Shown: piece after piece, positions 3,001-47,200 of the stretch
Layout of the letters: every line of letters starts with the position of its first letter
How positions within the stretch are numbered: the stretch's first letter is position 1
IMG/VR virus record: IMGVR_UViG_3300040816_000831
DNA from: a virus
Strand: one strand, 5' to 3'
DNA: 64,000 nucleotides
Translations under genes and position numbers: made by a program
The notes under the pieces: model-generated
Databases searched by the model: none
What the model was told of the DNA's origin: nothing
Seen by the model: only the letters and a program-made list of their open reading frames with translations

Positions 3001-3042
3001 TGTCGCAGAACGCCTAAGCTTTATGTTAGTATTTCGGGCCAA
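1..3042 (-). CDS. Tail fibre / virion structural protein, runs off the left edge (absent from ORF track)
   Basis: TTG start at 3042 behind AGGAGA; reads MARNTNIKLRRSATAGAIPTTSNLDLGELAINTYDGKLFLKK; same frame open in the segments I translated, including position 1; NG-[IV]-LL..DYTATNG repeats and DSA repeats. Confidence 0.85.
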   Translation of the reverse strand, partial: MARNTNIKLRRSATAGAIPTTSNLDLGELAINTYDGKLFLKKNISGTESIVEIGGDSGTQQTAVYKEYVYTATNNQTSFSGSDDNSQTLSYVVGYLQVFLNGVLLENGTDYTATTGNSVVLVNGAATSDILQISTFVKVLGTGDMVTNTFTGNGSTAAYTLTTNPDTEENTIVFVDGVYQEKDTYTVSGTTLTFDANVPNGASIEVVIGSRNVTTLDAADLSISGDLTVAGEAIITGDIQGDLRGATLFKAKAGEALSKGDVVYISGISGNTTVVSKADADDSAKMPAFGVVAADASLNASVSIYTFGRLSGLDTSSFSEGDELFVSTTAGALTSTAPTGESSKIQKIAKVTRSDNSAGSIFIMGAGRSNAVPNLDDGDIFIGNASNQASTAALNTSIVPESGNLYFTTARVDSHLSGGTGVTYSTGTISIGQDVGTSADVQFNDVQVDGTLTSDDITSTNISVAGNATITGNLTVEGTTTTLNTATLDVEDKNITLNYGSGDTSGSANGAGITIQDAVNSTTDSTILWNQSNSEFDFSHGINVTGTVTYGTLNDGTTALTSTVAELNYLDGVTGITLGSANELLVVGGDGSSIVSDSTLAVDTSNNRLGINQSSPDVTLHMTGEGAQTAQIRMEQYNNSADAPDVRTRRYRGTIASPSAIQSGDYLFRSNHEYYNGSALIVGGQFAFDNTNDANKTQFTVAVTTDGTSVDASNLGDVQFKIDGNDSGAITFNNAYKFPTSDGTANQFLKTDGSGNLTFAEAGVDSAFVTGIIDSAYITARTSAGTDSASVIALITSTVDSAYVALREANAGGLDSASIINLIDSAYVQARQASSVGGTSSTMVTFYEYLPDSGATTISGNDRDGNALSYQAGNIQVYRNGILLVDSNDYTANNGSTVTLTTSAVGGDYISIASYVEGVDVQIKDYEFSADSGQTTFTGLATNGETLSYTADNIIVHLNGILLTDSADYTATNGSSIVLTTAADSADLLSIIAFTNTSAVNQYVEATTNITAIA

Positions 3043-3120
3043 TTTTGGCTTCTCCTATTTTCAATCTCTATAAAGAGTTAATTTTAAATGTTCACCCTGT
3101 ATATACAGGAATTATAAAAC

Positions 3121-3128
3121 TATTTATA
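3121..3128 (-). promoter_or_regulatory. T4-type late promoter TATAAATA
   Basis: Exact TATAAATA upstream of the fibre gene. Confidence 0.75.
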
Positions 3129-4718
3129 TTAGTAGGTTCCGCCGTCTATAATATTAGAGAATGCTGGTACTCCACCACTATCTGCTTGTAATAAACTTCC
3201 ATCTGCAGATGAAGCAGCTGTTACGTCAAGAGCATTTGAGCCATCACCATATAATACACCATTATCTGTAAATGATGATACTCCAGTACCACCGTGAGCA
3301 ACTTCTAAATCATTTGTTAATGTGACGGTTCCTGTTACGCTTAAATTATCATCAACAGTAACTGTTCCACCAGCTGAATCAATTGTTAGATTACCAGATA
3401 CTGTATCAATTTCATTATCGCCAGTAATACCAATTTGTATATTACCTAAGTCAGCACCAGTACCATATATATTACCAAATTCTGCATCACTCCAAGGTGT
3501 TGAGAAATCGTCTGATGTTACTGTTTCGTCTTTTGTAAATACAAATCTTTGTGACTGAATATCAAAACCAAAGAAACCTGTTGCAACTGCTGAACCTGTT
3601 CCCCACTTAAATCTTACACCACGGTCAAGACCATCTGATGTATTTGAGGTTGTATTGTCAGCTAATGCAAGTACTGGGTCATCAATTGTAACTGTTGTTG
3701 ATTCAACTGTAGTAGTTGTACCTTGAACTGTTAAGTTACCAGCAATAACAACTGTATCTGATGTTGCGTTACCTAAGCTAACATTACCATTAACTTGTAA
3801 AGTACCATCAACAACTGTATTACCTGTAGCGCCTGCAACAGTAAAGTTGCCTGAGCCTACGTCTAAATCTGTTGTGACTGTTAAATCATTTCCAATTGTG
3901 ACATCATCTGGTAATGCAATGTTTAGAGTTACATCAGTACCTGATTTTGAAGATGTAGTAACAATTTCATTTGCTGTACCAGTAATTTGTAAATCATCTG
4001 TTAATAAATCAACATCACCTGTACCACTATCACCATCAACTGTTAAAGCAGTAGCAACTGCAACTGTAGAAGCAGCGGTTAATCTACCTTGTGCATCAAC
4101 TGTAAAGGTTGGAATTTGTGTTTGTGAACCGTATGAACCTGCTGTGACTGCAGTATTATCTAGGTTTAATGTTACTGTATTACTTGAGCCAACAGAAGTT
4201 AATCCTGTTCCACCAGCAATTGTTAATGTTTCTGAATCAAGGTCAATTGATAAAGCACCACCTGAATCAGCTTGGAAATCTAAATCTTGAGCCGTAACTT
4301 CAGCATCAATGTATGTCTTTAAAGCTGCAGCTGTAATAAGCTGTGCATTAGTAGGAGAACCTGGCATTGTTGTTTCAATACTTGTAACGACTTGTCCACT
4401 TCCACCTGATGTTTCTAATGCTAAATTTTCAATATTAAGTGTATCAATATGTAGATTATTATCTAATATTACTGCACTACTTGCTGTTGCTGTACCATGT
4501 GTATGGTCCAACATATCGGTAAAATACTTACCGCCTATTATTTCTTGTGCACTTGCTATTCCACCGGATTCTGAACCGGTACCAATATAAACTCTACCAC
4601 CGCCGTTGCTTACTGTACCACCGCCGTATGTATAGGCGATTTCACCTGTTTTTAGAAGATTGGATGGTGCACTTGTCCCACTACTCGTAAGATGTTTTAT
4701 TCTTGTTAAAGCTGCCAT
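3129..4718 (-). CDS. Tail fibre / virion structural protein
   Basis: 529 aa, G/T/S/D-rich; GEIAY N-terminus, IPTFTVDAQGRLTAAS, GNLTVQGTTTTV, C-terminal IDGGTY typical of marine myophage fibres. Confidence 0.8.
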   Translation of the reverse strand: MAALTRIKHLTSSGTSAPSNLLKTGEIAYTYGGGTVSNGGGRVYIGTGSESGGIASAQEIIGGKYFTDMLDHTHGTATASSAVILDNNLHIDTLNIENLALETSGGSGQVVTSIETTMPGSPTNAQLITAAALKTYIDAEVTAQDLDFQADSGGALSIDLDSETLTIAGGTGLTSVGSSNTVTLNLDNTAVTAGSYGSQTQIPTFTVDAQGRLTAASTVAVATALTVDGDSGTGDVDLLTDDLQITGTANEIVTTSSKSGTDVTLNIALPDDVTIGNDLTVTTDLDVGSGNFTVAGATGNTVVDGTLQVNGNVSLGNATSDTVVIAGNLTVQGTTTTVESTTVTIDDPVLALADNTTSNTSDGLDRGVRFKWGTGSAVATGFFGFDIQSQRFVFTKDETVTSDDFSTPWSDAEFGNIYGTGADLGNIQIGITGDNEIDTVSGNLTIDSAGGTVTVDDNLSVTGTVTLTNDLEVAHGGTGVSSFTDNGVLYGDGSNALDVTAASSADGSLLQADSGGVPAFSNIIDGGTY

Positions 4719-31311: not shown

Positions 31312-31337
31312 AAAAAAGGGGACCATTCAGTCCCCTT
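31310..31337 (-). terminator. Intrinsic terminator between converging tape-measure and gp32 genes
   Basis: AAGGGGAC-cattca-GTCCCCTT stem with 8-U tail on the minus strand. Confidence 0.85.
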
Positions 31338-31353
31338 CGAAAATTAAATTTAA

Positions 31354-32268
31354 TTAACTTTCTTTAGCTAGTTTAGCAAAATAGCTGAGCGTATCATCTT
31401 CATCAGACGAATCAACTGGAGTAGTACCCATTGCTTCCGCATTGGATGTACTCATTCCTTGAGTTGGCGCTGCAGTTTCATTCATTACTGGTGCTGCTAC
31501 TGGAGCGTGTCCTGCATCAATACCTAGTACTTTATTCAACTTCATTGAAAGCTCATCGTAAGTTTTATAATTACTTGGCTCTAAGAAATCTTGTAAAGAA
31601 TAAAGTTTGTCATAAACTTCGGTTAATCTAGACTCGTCGCCGTCATACAATGATGATGATGAACTAAATTCTGATTTATCGTAGTTTACCCAACCTTCTA
31701 CTTTTCTGATTTTGATTTTGAAGTCTGCGCCTTCCCAGAAATCGTAAGGATTTACTGGGTTTTCATCAGCGAACTGAGGTTGCATGACGTCCATAATCTT
31801 ATCAAAGATTTTCTTACCAAACTTATAAAGAAATACCTTTCCTTCATTTTCTGGATTTGACGGGTCAGAAACAATTAGTACATTACTTACGTAGTGTAGC
31901 CTTCTTTTTCTATCCCTAGCAGTTGCTTTATCTTCGTCTCTACCAGAGTTCCAAAGTACAGAGTTATGCTCCGATACTGGGTCCTGCTGTCCAATGGACG
32001 TTAAAGAGTTTTCGATATACCATAAGCCAGTTGGTCCCTTGAATCCATGGTCCCAATATCTTACCCAAGGTAAGTCCTCACCATCTTTTGCTGGTAAGAA
32101 TCTGACAACGGCATAACCGTTTCCTGCTTTATCTCTTGTAGGCTTCCAAAATCTATCATCCGCATAGGAATTAGTAGTTTCTGGTTTTGCTGAAGAGACT
32201 GCTTCTGCTGCTTTTACGAGTTTGTCGATTGACGAGCCTCGCATGCTCTTTAGATTTTCTAGTGACAT
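31354..32268 (-). CDS. gp32: Single-stranded DNA-binding protein gp32
   Basis: DDRFWKP..DKAGNGYAVVRFLP, WYIENSLT, FWEGADFK.KIRKV.G..NYD.SEF, acidic tail. Confidence 0.97.
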   Translation of the reverse strand: MSLENLKSMRGSSIDKLVKAAEAVSSAKPETTNSYADDRFWKPTRDKAGNGYAVVRFLPAKDGEDLPWVRYWDHGFKGPTGLWYIENSLTSIGQQDPVSEHNSVLWNSGRDEDKATARDRKRRLHYVSNVLIVSDPSNPENEGKVFLYKFGKKIFDKIMDVMQPQFADENPVNPYDFWEGADFKIKIRKVEGWVNYDKSEFSSSSSLYDGDESRLTEVYDKLYSLQDFLEPSNYKTYDELSMKLNKVLGIDAGHAPVAAPVMNETAAPTQGMSTSNAEAMGTTPVDSSDEDDTLSYFAKLAKES

Positions 32269-32331
32269 ATATTTCTCCTGTATTTACACTGTATTACTGA
32301 ATTATCCACTTTATTCATTATATAATAGTAT

Positions 32332-32360
32332 ATTATACCACACTTCTATGGTTTTGTAAA
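32332..32360 (-). promoter_or_regulatory. Sigma70-like promoter for gp32
   Basis: TTTACA-17 nt-TATAAT with TG extension. Confidence 0.8.
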
Positions 32361-33707: not shown

Positions 33708-34829
33708 CTAAAATACTCTCATTAATATACAGTCAGCATTAACTCTGCCTGTTGGTTTATCTATTTTTGTTGTTAATGTATCCCAAATCTTTTCAATTTG
33801 TTTTTCTGTTTTATTTAAAATCATTGGTAGTATTTCATCTGGCTTTCTTAAAGTAGCTTGTCTAGACTCTTTAGTAAAGTTTTTTACTGAAGTGCCTGAT
33901 ACTTCGAAGCCACTTACTGAGTCTGTAAAGTATTCAATAAGTTTCTTGTTCTTTCTATTATAGACATACAGCTTGTGTTTGCCAGGTATCATTACAGGAT
34001 TAATCGAGGTTAACTTAACGTCGTTATCTTCTGTACAATACTTTAACTTACTAACCTGTTGGTCTGAAGCTTTAACTTTCTTAGCTCTTGGTAGTTTAGT
34101 AGCCTTAAACGAATCTTTTAATCTATCTAAATCAGCAAATATTTCTCTAAACTGCTTAAGTATTTTATTTTTTTCGCCTTTAGTCCAGTGAGAATAAGCT
34201 TCGACACATTGGTCGCAAGTCTTTTCATATGCCTCATTGATGTTATTATATTCAGTATCTAATAATTCTCTGAATATCTTGATGGCATTACCTTTTAAGT
34301 TATGACCTTTAAATCTGTTATAAGCACTAAACTTTCTATTAAAGTCTCCTTCTAACCAACCTTCAACTATTTCTAAATCAAAATCAGCGTATATAGTATC
34401 CATCACTTTTCTGCGAGTTCTTTCAGCAGGACTGATAACAACTACTACAGCTTTTTTAGCTTCTTCGACTTTCTTTTCTTTTAAGCCGATTTTATATTGA
34501 ACATTAATAAAATCTTTAATCTTATCTAATTGTTCATCTGAATAGACCCATCCTCTATAATGTAGTTTAATCAGTTTATTAACTGACATAAATTTATAGT
34601 CTTTAAGTCTTTTAAGTACTGCTACTTTCTTTTTATCGTATCCACAATAGTCCATTGCAAACTGATAAGTTGTAGGCATGTAATCCTTAGTCTTATAAAA
34701 ATAGTTATACCATGAAGCTCCTCTTGTCCACTCTCTATCGTTGAACTCTGATTCCTTAGTATAAATTGGTTCTGGTCCAAGATACTTATCATCTAGACTT
34801 GGTCCTCTTTTTCTTTTATTTGCTGCCAT
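33708..34829 (-). CDS. Hypothetical protein
   Basis: 373 aa, basic; own promoter and AGGAGA RBS; ends GRVN.DCIL.RVF. Confidence 0.8.
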   Translation of the reverse strand: MAANKRKRGPSLDDKYLGPEPIYTKESEFNDREWTRGASWYNYFYKTKDYMPTTYQFAMDYCGYDKKKVAVLKRLKDYKFMSVNKLIKLHYRGWVYSDEQLDKIKDFINVQYKIGLKEKKVEEAKKAVVVVISPAERTRRKVMDTIYADFDLEIVEGWLEGDFNRKFSAYNRFKGHNLKGNAIKIFRELLDTEYNNINEAYEKTCDQCVEAYSHWTKGEKNKILKQFREIFADLDRLKDSFKATKLPRAKKVKASDQQVSKLKYCTEDNDVKLTSINPVMIPGKHKLYVYNRKNKKLIEYFTDSVSGFEVSGTSVKNFTKESRQATLRKPDEILPMILNKTEKQIEKIWDTLTTKIDKPTGRVNADCILMRVF

Positions 34830-34855
34830 ATTTCTCCTTAATTGTTTATATGTAT

Positions 34856-34884
34856 ATTATAACACATTTTAAGTCGTTTGTAAA
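34856..34884 (-). promoter_or_regulatory. Sigma70-like promoter
   Basis: TTTACA-17-TATAAT with TG extension. Confidence 0.8.
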
Positions 34885-34904
34885 CGATTTTTGTGAATAA
34901 AGGT

Positions 34905-34952
34905 GGCCGAGCCTCTGCGGGTGATAAGGAGTCGCATTGTTGAGACTCAGCC
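34905..34952 (-). ncRNA. Candidate regulatory RNA hairpin with an anti-Shine-Dalgarno loop
   Basis: 11-bp stem GGCUGAGUCUC/GAGGCUCGGCC (two G-U pairs only on the minus strand), 4-bp inner stem UGCG/CGCA, loop ACUCCUUAUCACC. Confidence 0.6.
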
Positions 34953-34961
34953 GTTGACATA

Positions 34962-35084
34962 TTAATCTTTCTCCCAAGGTAATGGGATTTGTTTTCCTTT
35001 TCTTTGTTCTTCAGCGACATGGCTTGACATGTATGCAAACACCATTGCTCCTATTGTAATTAATATAGTAAAAAATGTATTCAT
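34962..35084 (-). CDS. 40-aa membrane peptide (not in ORF track)
   Basis: MNTFFTILITIGAMVFAYMSSHVAEEQRKGKQIPLPWEKD; TAATG coupling and GAGGAG RBS. Confidence 0.65.
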   Translation of the reverse strand: MNTFFTILITIGAMVFAYMSSHVAEEQRKGKQIPLPWEKD

Positions 35085-35440
35085 TAGTTTCTCCTCATAT
35101 TAGCAATATCAGTTGCTTCTTCTTGAGAGATAACTGGTACAGCATTTGATTTATGCATAGTGGCAATACCTTTTACTAAGGTGCCAGTATACTTCATTGT
35201 TTCTTTTTTACTACAATCGCTAGCGATTTCATGGTAATTACCATTCTTCATATATTCTTCCATTAAGGAATTATATTGTACAGCTTGTCTTTCTCGTATC
35301 TTATTTAATTGAGATTCTCTTAAAGCTGCTGATTGAAAAGCCACTGGCTTCTTTTTAACTCTATTAGCTGCGTGGTTTTTTCTCTTCCTTCCACAAGGTG
35401 AATACCTTAGTGAACCCATATAGAAGCTCGTAACAGCCAT
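35084..35440 (-). CDS. Hypothetical protein
   Basis: C-terminal YTGTLVKGIATMHKSNAVPV motif seen in T4-like phages. Confidence 0.8.
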   Translation of the reverse strand: MAVTSFYMGSLRYSPCGRKRKNHAANRVKKKPVAFQSAALRESQLNKIRERQAVQYNSLMEEYMKNGNYHEIASDCSKKETMKYTGTLVKGIATMHKSNAVPVISQEEATDIANMRRN

Positions 35441-36766: not shown

Positions 36767-36776
36767 AATTTACTCC

Positions 36777-37286
36777 TTAAAATGTTATGTTTCTTTCAAT
36801 TCTTGATTCTACTACTGCATTCTCTTTGAGCCATGCTCCAGCTTCTTTATCGCCAACACAAAAATCGCCGTCTTCCATTAAGAATTCTTTCTTATAGTTT
36901 TCACGGTCGTTAGTCCATGTCTCAGTTGTTTCGAGAATTTCTTTTCTCATCCAACCATCTTCACGGTTATCAGTAATTTTGATGAAATTAACATCACCAA
37001 AAAGGTCAAAAGAAAACTCTGTGACTGAATCCCAGTCAGCGCAAACTTGCTCTGTGTGAGGAACAACTTTTACGTCGTTGACGTATTCTTCTGAACCACC
37101 GTTTGACTTGACTAAGTCAGTGGTTATATATGGCTTGACTCTAGCCACGAGAGTAGCAATCTCATTTTCATTGAGCTCGCCGCAATTCGACATTACGTAA
37201 GTAGTGCCGCCCTTGAACTTCATGTACGGGTCTTTTGAATCCCCGTAGTTCTCGAGATATTGTGTGTGTATTACTAATTTTTTCAT
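36777..37286 (-). CDS. Hypothetical early protein
   Basis: KLVI.TQY.ENYG....PY.KFKGG.TY motif; extended RBS TGATAAGGAGT; promoter upstream. Confidence 0.8.
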   Translation of the reverse strand: MKKLVIHTQYLENYGDSKDPYMKFKGGTTYVMSNCGELNENEIATLVARVKPYITTDLVKSNGGSEEYVNDVKVVPHTEQVCADWDSVTEFSFDLFGDVNFIKITDNREDGWMRKEILETTETWTNDRENYKKEFLMEDGDFCVGDKEAGAWLKENAVVESRIERNITF

Positions 37287-37321
37287 ATTCTTAACTCCTT
37301 ATCAATTTTGAATATATGTAT

Positions 37322-37350
37322 ATTATAACATACTTTTGAGCAAATGTAAA
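37322..37350 (-). promoter_or_regulatory. Strong early promoter
   Basis: TTTACA-17-TATAAT, TG extension, A-tract upstream. Confidence 0.82.
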
Positions 37351-38556: not shown

Positions 38557-38589
38557 TTTAACTCCTTATCTTTTAAACTGTATAGGTAT

Positions 38590-38618
38590 ATTATACCCTA
38601 GTTGGGAGCAAATGTAAA
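38590..38618 (-). promoter_or_regulatory. Early promoter
   Basis: TTTACA-17-TATAAT. Confidence 0.8.
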
Positions 38619-43018: not shown

Positions 43019-44176
43019 TTAGTTTCCTTGGTTGATGAAGATTTCAATTCCTTCTCCGCTTCCAAATGTTATTATTCCTTGGTAACCTTCCACATTTGTA
43101 TTTATAAATCCGTTACCACCAGATGCTATAGTTATATTTATAACACCATTAACTGTTCTATATAAAATTAAATTACCGTCTTCTTCAAAGATATTATATT
43201 GTGAATCCTTATTTAATCCAAAGTTACCGCCTTTTAATACCCAACCAGCACTTGAATCTCCACCTGCTTGAGCATCATCTAATGTTGCAGTTGTTCTTAC
43301 TAATTCCTCAACTACATCCAAAAGGTCTGGTAAAAAATCTCCAGCTAATGCATCGTAATTTAATCTATCTCTTGCATCGTAATCTTCATCTAAATAATCT
43401 TCTATATCTTTCTCCAATTCATTATATTCAAGGTAATCAATATCAAGTATTCCTTGGTCATCATCTAAATCATTCTGTACTTGTTCTTCAATCGCTTCTT
43501 TTACTTCTTGTGGAGGATTAACAATAAACATATTATCAATCATTGACGGAGTAATACCATTAATTTGTATAGGATTGGTTGGTATTTTATCCAATGATGA
43601 TACCATTGTTGCTTGGTAGGCTTGATTTAAAGTAATTGTACCACCTAAATTTGTTACTGTTATTTCACCTGATGGATTACCATATTGGTCAGGTAATAAA
43701 ACAATTAAGCTTCTACCTAATTCATCAATGGTTGTTGTAAAATCTGTTCCACGAATACCAATTGTGGCTGTAGGCGTTTGTATATCAATGTTTGCTTTAT
43801 TAATTAAACCAAGAGAACCTGAAGCAAATCTTGCTGTTCCCATAGTAAACTTCATTGACATTTTGGATAATGATGGGTCAGGGTCATAATATATTTCGTC
43901 TATTAATACCTCTGTATGTTCTTTTAAATCCAATTGAGCATTATCCAAAAACTCAATTTTCATTTTACCATTTGCTGTTTCTGCAATATCGTTTAGTTCT
44001 ACAGCTGGCATATACGCGCCAGATACTGTAATCTCTTCTTTATCTCTTATAATTTGACCTGAACCGGTCTGTTCAATCACTTCGCCGATGGGGTCGGCTA
44101 AGACCCCACCGATGAATAACAAATTAAGAATCGCTAGATGAATCTTTTTGATTGATTTGAATTGTTGCATTATCAC
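43019..44176 (-). CDS. Exported FecR-domain protein
   Basis: Signal-like N-terminus; ET..G...I.F.D...L.L..HT, I.TPTATIGIRGTDF; acidic C-terminal half. Confidence 0.85.
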   Translation of the reverse strand: MIMQQFKSIKKIHLAILNLLFIGGVLADPIGEVIEQTGSGQIIRDKEEITVSGAYMPAVELNDIAETANGKMKIEFLDNAQLDLKEHTEVLIDEIYYDPDPSLSKMSMKFTMGTARFASGSLGLINKANIDIQTPTATIGIRGTDFTTTIDELGRSLIVLLPDQYGNPSGEITVTNLGGTITLNQAYQATMVSSLDKIPTNPIQINGITPSMIDNMFIVNPPQEVKEAIEEQVQNDLDDDQGILDIDYLEYNELEKDIEDYLDEDYDARDRLNYDALAGDFLPDLLDVVEELVRTTATLDDAQAGGDSSAGWVLKGGNFGLNKDSQYNIFEEDGNLILYRTVNGVINITIASGGNGFINTNVEGYQGIITFGSGEGIEIFINQGN

Positions 44177-47138: not shown

Positions 47139-47159
47139 AGACTTAGCATGCTAAGATAC

Positions 47160-47190
47160 AAAAAAAGGGAGCAATGAGCTCCCTTCTTTT
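47160..47190. terminator. Intrinsic terminator, possibly bidirectional
   Basis: AAGGGAGC-aatga-GCTCCCTT flanked by A and T runs. Confidence 0.85.
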
Positions 47191-47200
47191 TAAAAACAAT

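Follow-up and report, generated by a model that had tools for sequence, protein, structure and literature searches.

A conserved, single-copy RNA hairpin with an anti-Shine-Dalgarno loop at the end of the early-gene region of marine T4-like phages, and its possible role in early translation

The DNA analyzed here, a stretch of 64,000 nucleotides referred to as the window, derives from a T4-like myovirus of marine or estuarine waters that has not been cultured. The G+C content of the window is 32.8%, the CHASE2 cyclase that it encodes is 44% identical to the counterpart in Pelagibacter phage HTVC008M, and the DNA runs containing the stretch are estuary metagenomes. No near-identical or close phage was found in the phage collection, and no tRNA or tmRNA was detected in the window. 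At positions 34905-34952, an intergenic hairpin is surrounded by genes that are all located on the minus strand. Upstream of the hairpin lies a 40-aa open reading frame (34962-35084, minus strand), whose stop codon precedes the hairpin by 9 nt, and downstream lies the gene of a 373-aa protein of the family phrog_11903 (33708-34829, minus strand). Between the hairpin and the 373-aa gene, an early-type promoter (34856-34884, minus strand) is composed of TTTACA, a spacer of 17 nt, and TGnTATAAT (TTTACA-17-TGnTATAATATAC), and begins 20 nt after the end of the hairpin. The ribosome-binding site (RBS) of the gene, UAAGGAG, occupies positions 34840-34834, about 65 nt downstream of the hairpin. The genes for gp59 and gp32 are found just downstream of this region, so that the hairpin is positioned at the end of the variable early-gene region and at the start of a conserved replication block (phrog_11903, gp59, gp32).

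Five early-type promoters of the TTTACA-N17 form are present in the window, where none would be expected by chance. Two of these, of the form TTTACA-N17-TATAATATAC, precede genes 37286 and 38556 (operon promoters at 37322-37350 and 38590-38618, respectively, both on the minus strand), in agreement with the original prediction that strong early promoters stand directly ahead of both genes. At a further early promoter (35852-35824, minus strand), the ATG of the gene at 35816-35568 is located only 7 nt after the −10 box; the mRNA of this gene, at the head of the operon that runs up to the hairpin, is probably leaderless. For the gp32 gene, a separate early-type promoter and a leader are located at about 32283-32360 (minus strand), and the leader block AAAGTGGATAATTCAGTAATAC is almost unchanged in distant relatives (about 6270-6341 in contig L071, and about 6440-6510 in contig L045). 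By analogy with T4 gene 32, the gp32 leader is a candidate translational operator.

The original prediction described a minus-strand fold made of an 11-bp stem and a 4-bp stem, with two G-U pairs pointing to the minus-strand RNA. Both stems, as well as both G-U pairs, are present. Folding of the minus strand over 34905-34952 gave a minimum free energy of −22.8 kcal/mol (z = −4.7), which was equaled by none of 200 shuffled sequences, whereas the plus strand folds more poorly (z = −1.7). The lower stem, with seven G-C pairs among its 11 bp, is formed by a 5′ arm (34942-34952) and a 3′ arm (34905-34915, pairing with 34952-34942). It is followed by a 5-nt bulge, AACAA (34937-34941; AUCAA in most close relatives), and by a short upper stem of 3-4 bp (within 34916-34936; 34936-34933 paired with 34919-34916), which closes a 13-nt apical loop, ACUCCUUAUCACC (34920-34932). 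The tail after the stem, ACCUUUAUUC (34895-34904), contains a weak U-tract, with UUUAUU beginning 3 nt past the stem. The bases of the loop are predicted to be 97-100% unpaired in a 320-nt context, and this hairpin is the sole place in the 64 kb where CTCCTT is unpaired in the loop of a strong hairpin.

Conservation was assessed in relatives that were fetched via the downstream 373-aa protein (80 viral-contig loci and 80 metagenome-contig loci), with the count restricted to the 155 loci that have an intact upstream flank. At 154 of these 155 loci, the phrog_11903 gene is preceded by a hairpin in whose loop CUCCU is unpaired, and 76 distinct hairpin sequences were present among the 160 loci. 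The one exception, L289 (48% protein identity; 3030-3356), contains the promoter and the gene with no hairpin, and is a natural loss of the element. A covariance model (R1) gave exactly one match per locus, including one in the window (73.7 bits), and one match in each of four contigs of 49-128 kb.

In an alignment of 28 close variants (A2), 99.2% of the cells contain standard pairs, and both-sided changes were observed at 10 of the 11 pairs of the lower stem, in which all cells pair. The upper stem shows a compensated U-A to C-G change in six rows. The covariation score of this alignment was reached by none of 500 shuffles, and the pairing fell to 32-44% when the partner columns were slid against each other. 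On the gene strand, 44 cells are G-U or U-G pairs, which would be A-C mismatches on the other strand, indicating that the minus-strand RNA is the selected molecule. The strong covariation and the G-U pairs bear out the proposal of a functional RNA on the minus strand. In distant lineages, with protein identities down to 48%, the stems (11-17 bp) are unrelated in sequence, and the loops are larger (19-27 nt) and mostly G-free. The ACUCCUU of the loop is invariant across all of these very divergent relatives, usually followed by AUCA, in support of the anti-Shine-Dalgarno (anti-SD) loop that had been postulated.

A search of the window against Rfam (release 15) yielded no family at the gathering threshold, and only chance matches, with E above 1, were obtained for positions 34780-35100. 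Among 13 divergent relatives, the sole Rfam match was to a tRNA elsewhere in the sequence. A tRNA gene was observed at 3152-3223 in the early region of relative L268. Literature searches found no prior description of the element, and no cultured phage carrying it was found, either in the phage collection or by scanning HTVC008M. The hairpin is, thus, a structured RNA of the minus strand, conserved and as yet uncatalogued, and is carried by marine T4-like phages that are relatives of the pelagimyophages, and the RNA motif is new and robust.

The loop was proposed to be complementary to the RBSs of three early genes over 11, 10, and 8 nt, and all three complementarities proved to be exact. The RBS of gene 37286, UGAUAAGGAGU (37294-37304, minus strand), is an 11-nt complement of the loop, with a calculated duplex energy of −17.6 kcal/mol. 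The RBS of gene 38556, GAUAAGGAGU (38561-38570, minus strand), matches over 10 nt, and the RBS of gene 36766, UAAGGAGU (36772-36779, minus strand), over 8 nt. These are the only genes in the window with RBS matches of at least 8 nt to the loop. The sequence GATAAGGAGT occurs three times in the window, compared with 0.1 expected: once in the loop, when read on the plus strand, and twice on the minus strand, at 37294-37303 and 38561-38570. A strong SD of the AAGGAG type is rare in this phage: the motif was found in the RBS window of 5 of 89 crude gene calls, and four of these five are located in the early block at 34.8-38.6 kb. When the 89 RBS windows were ranked by duplex energy with the apical region, gene 37286 was second and gene 38556 was fifth.

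Long complementarity to promoter-proximal early RBSs, which the original prediction had put forward for the window, recurs in almost every lineage. In nearly every lineage with 2.3 kb or more of flank upstream, RBSs were identical to the complement of the loop over 10-15 nt, for example over 15 nt in L268, 14 nt in L276, and 13 nt in both L058 and L059. The matched RBSs are located directly behind promoter-like −10 boxes, 1.2-4.2 kb upstream of the hairpin.

The proposed check of covariation between loop and early RBSs gave a divided answer. The 11-nt core complementarity is solid, and is co-conserved in both partners, whereas the flanks co-vary weakly. In a clade with the loop ...CUCCUUUUU, the RBSs read AAAAAGGAGUAAA (13 nt). 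An orthologous 73-aa gene, 88% identical between two phages, has differing RBSs, each of which matches the loop of its own phage. In lineages with a UAUCA loop, the next position pairs with the base before UGAUA in L268, L252, L041, L276, L055, and L059; in L056, the position after UAUCA does not pair with that base. On average, the duplex with the phage's own loop is extended by 0.68 positions, compared with 0.40 ± 0.14 when the loops are permuted among lineages (p = 0.034). When the SD core was held fixed and the flanks were shuffled, the own loop exceeded the shuffle mean in 14 of 17 genomes, with single-genome p values of 0.03-0.8. The matrix of own- and foreign-loop match lengths is not diagonal, the loops of L055 and L059 fitting the RBS of the window better than its own loop does; strict one-to-one co-evolution is, therefore, not claimed. 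In the close variants, the upper stem takes up the flank of the loop, which does not lengthen the duplex in any of them. Co-evolution of the loop and the RBS flanks is, on these sequence comparisons, suggestive but not proven.

The reading that we favor, with a confidence not far from even, is that the hairpin is an anti-SD element that closes the early region and represses the first early cistrons, either in trans or through long-range pairing in cis. According to this model, a stable hairpin would be transcribed as part of the early mRNAs, and its large, mostly G-free loop would present ACUCCUU, together with UAUCA in most lineages, as the anti-SD. The loop would pair with the unusually strong RBSs (such as that of gene 37286) of promoter-proximal early cistrons 1-4 kb upstream, and, with these sites occluded, the first early genes would cease to be translated as soon as the early region had been transcribed to its end. 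In about half of the lineages, early transcription would probably also be terminated or attenuated by the hairpin; termination would be a further effect where a U-tract is present. In the trans route, a 3′ end or a processed fragment would carry the loop, and in the cis route the pairing would occur within the same long transcript. We infer the loop-RBS pairing, the repression, and its cis or trans mode from these complementarities and their conservation. No other strong intergenic hairpin is found between the early promoters and this hairpin, and transcripts from 38618, 37350, and 35852 should, therefore, reach it. RNA from the region is represented by contigs from four RNA runs. A metatranscriptome contig (X19, 633 nt, two mismatches) has its end at about 34908-34913, within the 3′ arm. 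A second contig, from an oligo-dT library and belonging to a relative, spans the hairpin, the promoter, and the gene. Contigs of this kind show neither transcript ends nor strand, and the two are not counted as evidence here.

By analogy, the element functionally resembles regulators that act through an anti-SD in the 3′-UTR. On the mRNA-sense strand, the anti-SD is exposed behind a coding region, and the extended complementarity to SDs (10-15 nt) is kept in relatives, although the co-variation of the flanks is weak. In the icaR mRNA of Staphylococcus aureus, a pyrimidine-rich anti-SD in the 3′-UTR pairs with the SD at the 5′ end and blocks initiation (PMC3868564). The proposed cis route would follow the same 5′-3′ UTR pairing, and such logic, which involves RNA alone, suits early transcripts initiated at 37350 or 38618 and extending as far as the hairpin. 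The icaR mRNA differs in being cellular and monocistronic, and its pairing creates an RNase III site, whereas in the phage the putative partners would be 1-4 kb apart on a polycistronic mRNA, or would meet in trans, and the motif is displayed on a covarying hairpin. RNAIII and RsaE are types of base-pairing sRNAs with C-rich loops. Such sRNAs, and those derived from 3′-UTRs, have been reviewed (PMC9438474). The phage element shares with them a terminator-type hairpin at the 3′ end of an mRNA, and an exposed seed complementary to RBSs; unlike them, it is internal to an operon and lacks a U-tract in many lineages.

The constant features across loci are a hairpin immediately 5′ of the phrog_11903 gene, a stable stem, and ACUCCUU in the loop. 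The upstream genes are of at least three unrelated kinds among the relatives, and the stop codon of the upstream gene is located 5-9 nt before the stem, whichever gene it is. About three quarters of the variants, including the window, have a promoter between the hairpin and the gene. In many deep lineages no promoter intervenes, and 4-25 nt separate the end of the hairpin from the SD or AUG of the gene. The SD of the phrog_11903 gene itself varies from AAGGAGU to none. In L004, L013, L017, L019, L044, and L051, a small hydrophobic ORF of about 30 aa is inserted between the promoter and the 373-aa gene, and the hairpin remains upstream of the promoter. A gene-blind scan with a 14-mer of the loop yielded 115 viral contigs, in which every genuine hairpin adjoins the gene, the remaining occurrences being chance matches in coding sequence. 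In HTVC008M (147 kb, scanned in full), neither a hairpin with an anti-SD loop nor a phrog_11903 gene was found.

This strict linkage, which went unmentioned in the original prediction, keeps alive the main rival explanation: that the hairpin is an operator or leader of the phrog_11903 gene, acting in cis, with the invariant loop as a protein recognition site, for example in autogenous translational repression. On this view, the loop would resemble an anti-SD only incidentally or secondarily. The operator hairpin of T4 gp43, which adjoins its RBS, provides a model for such autogenous repression. We regard this explanation as unlikely on balance. In its favor, hairpin and gene are neighbors at 154 of 155 loci, with protein identities as low as 48% and whatever the gene upstream, and gene and hairpin are absent together from HTVC008M. 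The strict linkage and the compact lineages, in which no promoter intervenes, are best explained by an operator or leader. The loop also stays invariant while the SD of the gene ranges from AAGGAGU to none, as would be expected of a protein site. Several of the same facts weigh against the repression of early cistrons. A trans regulator does not predict strict linkage to a downstream gene, the hairpin often lies within 4-25 nt of the RBS of the gene with no promoter in between, and L289 has lost the hairpin yet keeps the gene. HTVC008M, without gene or hairpin, nevertheless has an RBS of the form GUGAUAAGGAG.

Neither the family nor the fold of the 373-aa protein is informative. Its N-terminus is basic, its middle part is long and helical, and its C-terminal β domain, of 95 aa, is conserved; it belongs to no Pfam family, has no PDB sequence match, and its PHROG family, which is found near rnh in phiM12, is uncharacterized. 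No significant fold match was obtained for the whole protein or for the C-terminal domain, and a protein atlas gave only a 0.76 lead. A faint similarity of the C-terminal domain to KTSC/Sm-like folds (Z 4.0-4.2; Foldseek probability 0.66) would suit an RNA-binding protein, but these matches are below the noise level of the tools, and thus give no sign of RNA binding. The promoter between the hairpin and the gene, present in the window and in roughly three variants out of four, would produce a proximal transcript without the hairpin. No hairpin accompanies the distant homologues of the gene in phiM12 and Cr30. The operator reading also leaves the early-RBS matches of 10-15 nt, and the clade-level co-variation, unexplained.

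A second rival, which we consider improbable, is that the element is an ordinary terminator or insulator stem-loop, in a cassette resembling the promoter-early stem-loops (PeSLs), at the border of the hyperplastic early region, its loop being kept for an unrelated reason. The PeSLs of T4-type phages are short, multi-copy, sequence-variable stem-loops (PMC2839356, PMC4122927). The order found here, with a stem-loop directly upstream of a sigma-70-like early promoter (TTTACA-N17-TATAAT), an SD, and a start codon, at the edge of the variable early region, corresponds to their definition (PMC4122927), and the genes upstream differ between relatives. PeSLs, however, are dispersed in many copies and serve as recombination sites, whereas the element here is long and covarying, with an invariant loop, and is present in a single copy in the window and in each contig of about 100 kb; no such hairpin accompanies the other four early promoters of the window. 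The lower stem is G+C-rich, as in intrinsic terminators (11 bp with 7 G-C pairs; 11-17 bp in relatives), and one RNA contig ends at the hairpin. A run of at least five U follows the stem in about 18 of 41 viral-contig variants, as counted by eye from their flanks; over half of the variants, however, lack it, and several hairpins are inside an operon. A scan of the window for consensus terminators did not call the hairpin. The loops of intrinsic terminators are short (3-8 nt), whereas the hairpin in the window has a 13-nt loop together with a bulge and an upper stem, and the loops elsewhere are of 19-27 nt. Three canonical intrinsic terminators were observed on the minus strand of the window (47141-47196, 44081-44136, and 31313-31368), with perfect G+C stems, loops of 4-6 nt, and, in two cases, a U-run after the stem. 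The loop sequence of a terminator is unconstrained, and a plain terminator leaves the invariant 7-mer of the loop unexplained.

A third possibility, already raised as an alternative in the original prediction, is that the loop acts in cis on the RBS of gene 34829 in read-through transcripts. Transcripts from the proximal promoter, which are without the anti-SD, would then be translated. For the T4 genes e, soc, 49, and I-TevI, the RBS is silenced in long early transcripts, and transcripts from a proximal promoter are translated. The order of hairpin, promoter, RBS (UAAGGAG), and gene in the window and in most variants is compatible with this arrangement, as is the position of the anti-SD upstream of an internal promoter, and in most close relatives 7-10 nt of the downstream RBS are complementary to the loop. 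In the T4 cases, however, the SD forms one arm of the hairpin, whereas here it is outside the hairpin (about 65 nt downstream in the window, and 4-15 nt outside the stem in compact lineages). In these compact lineages, the linker would probably be too short to let loop and SD form a pseudoknot past a stem of some 15 bp. The proximal promoter does not differ in type from the early promoters upstream, and cis control would, therefore, provide no temporal switch. Four lineages (L058, L068, L275, and L277) keep ACUCCUU although their downstream gene has no SD, and others have GGAG only. Because the loop is kept where the downstream SD is absent, cis control is unlikely as the conserved role, and we give it a low probability overall.

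It is very improbable that the CUCCUU loop mimics the 3′ tail of 16S rRNA and, as a decoy, draws away a protein that would otherwise bind or cut this tail (e.g., bS21, S1, or a nuclease): the anti-SD hexamer is within the loop and the related phage HTVC008M encodes ribosomal protein S21, yet HTVC008M has no hairpin, no protein partner was found, and the conserved UAUCA extension fits the flanks of phage RBSs and not the 16S tail. HTVC008M encodes S21 and a RegA-like translational repressor (L215, 41228-41431 and 46394-46840), and both are relevant to the handling of SD-led translation in such phages. In the same phage, a 255-nt intergenic stretch before gp195 (145182-145436; L214, 13183-13437) is G+C-richer, apparently structured, and unannotated, and could be an RNA gene; the RBS of gp195 is GTGATAAGGAG. 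Three other candidates were discarded for the hairpin of the window. A plus-strand RNA or CsrA-type GGA loop, and a DNA cruciform or origin, are ruled out by the G-U pairs, and a tRNA-like minihelix by the tail after the stem, which is not conserved.

The favored explanation, repression of the first early cistrons by the anti-SD loop, has difficulties of its own in addition to the linkage. The flank statistics are weak, given the spread of the single-genome p values and the non-diagonal cross-matrix. Pairing over 11 nt inside a closed 13-nt loop would probably be strained, unless the weak upper stem opens. The proposed outcome, inactivation of early mRNAs through their SDs, has a counterpart in T4, in which the endoribonuclease RegB inactivates early mRNAs via GGAG-containing SDs once these mRNAs are no longer needed. 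RegB is a protein nuclease, whereas antisense occlusion by an RNA is proposed here, and no RegB was found among the ten window proteins that were scanned. To our knowledge, the large phages of the most abundant marine bacteria are without the T4 regulators MotA, AsiA, and RegB.

In metagenomic contigs, the hairpin indicates where the variable early region gives way to the replication genes, and it constitutes a new motif for Rfam. Its 76 or so natural variants represent a ready-made mutational series. We tentatively suggest that a whole clade of abundant marine T4-like phages may rely on one RNA hairpin as the built-in timer of their early genes, in place of a protein such as RegB or RegA: at the end of the early region, a loop resembling the 16S tail would pair with the private strong RBSs of the first early cistrons and serve as their off-switch. 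A single-copy, covarying RNA of this kind is a concrete candidate for RNA-only control of early translation, and of the timing of the early-to-middle transition, in these phages.
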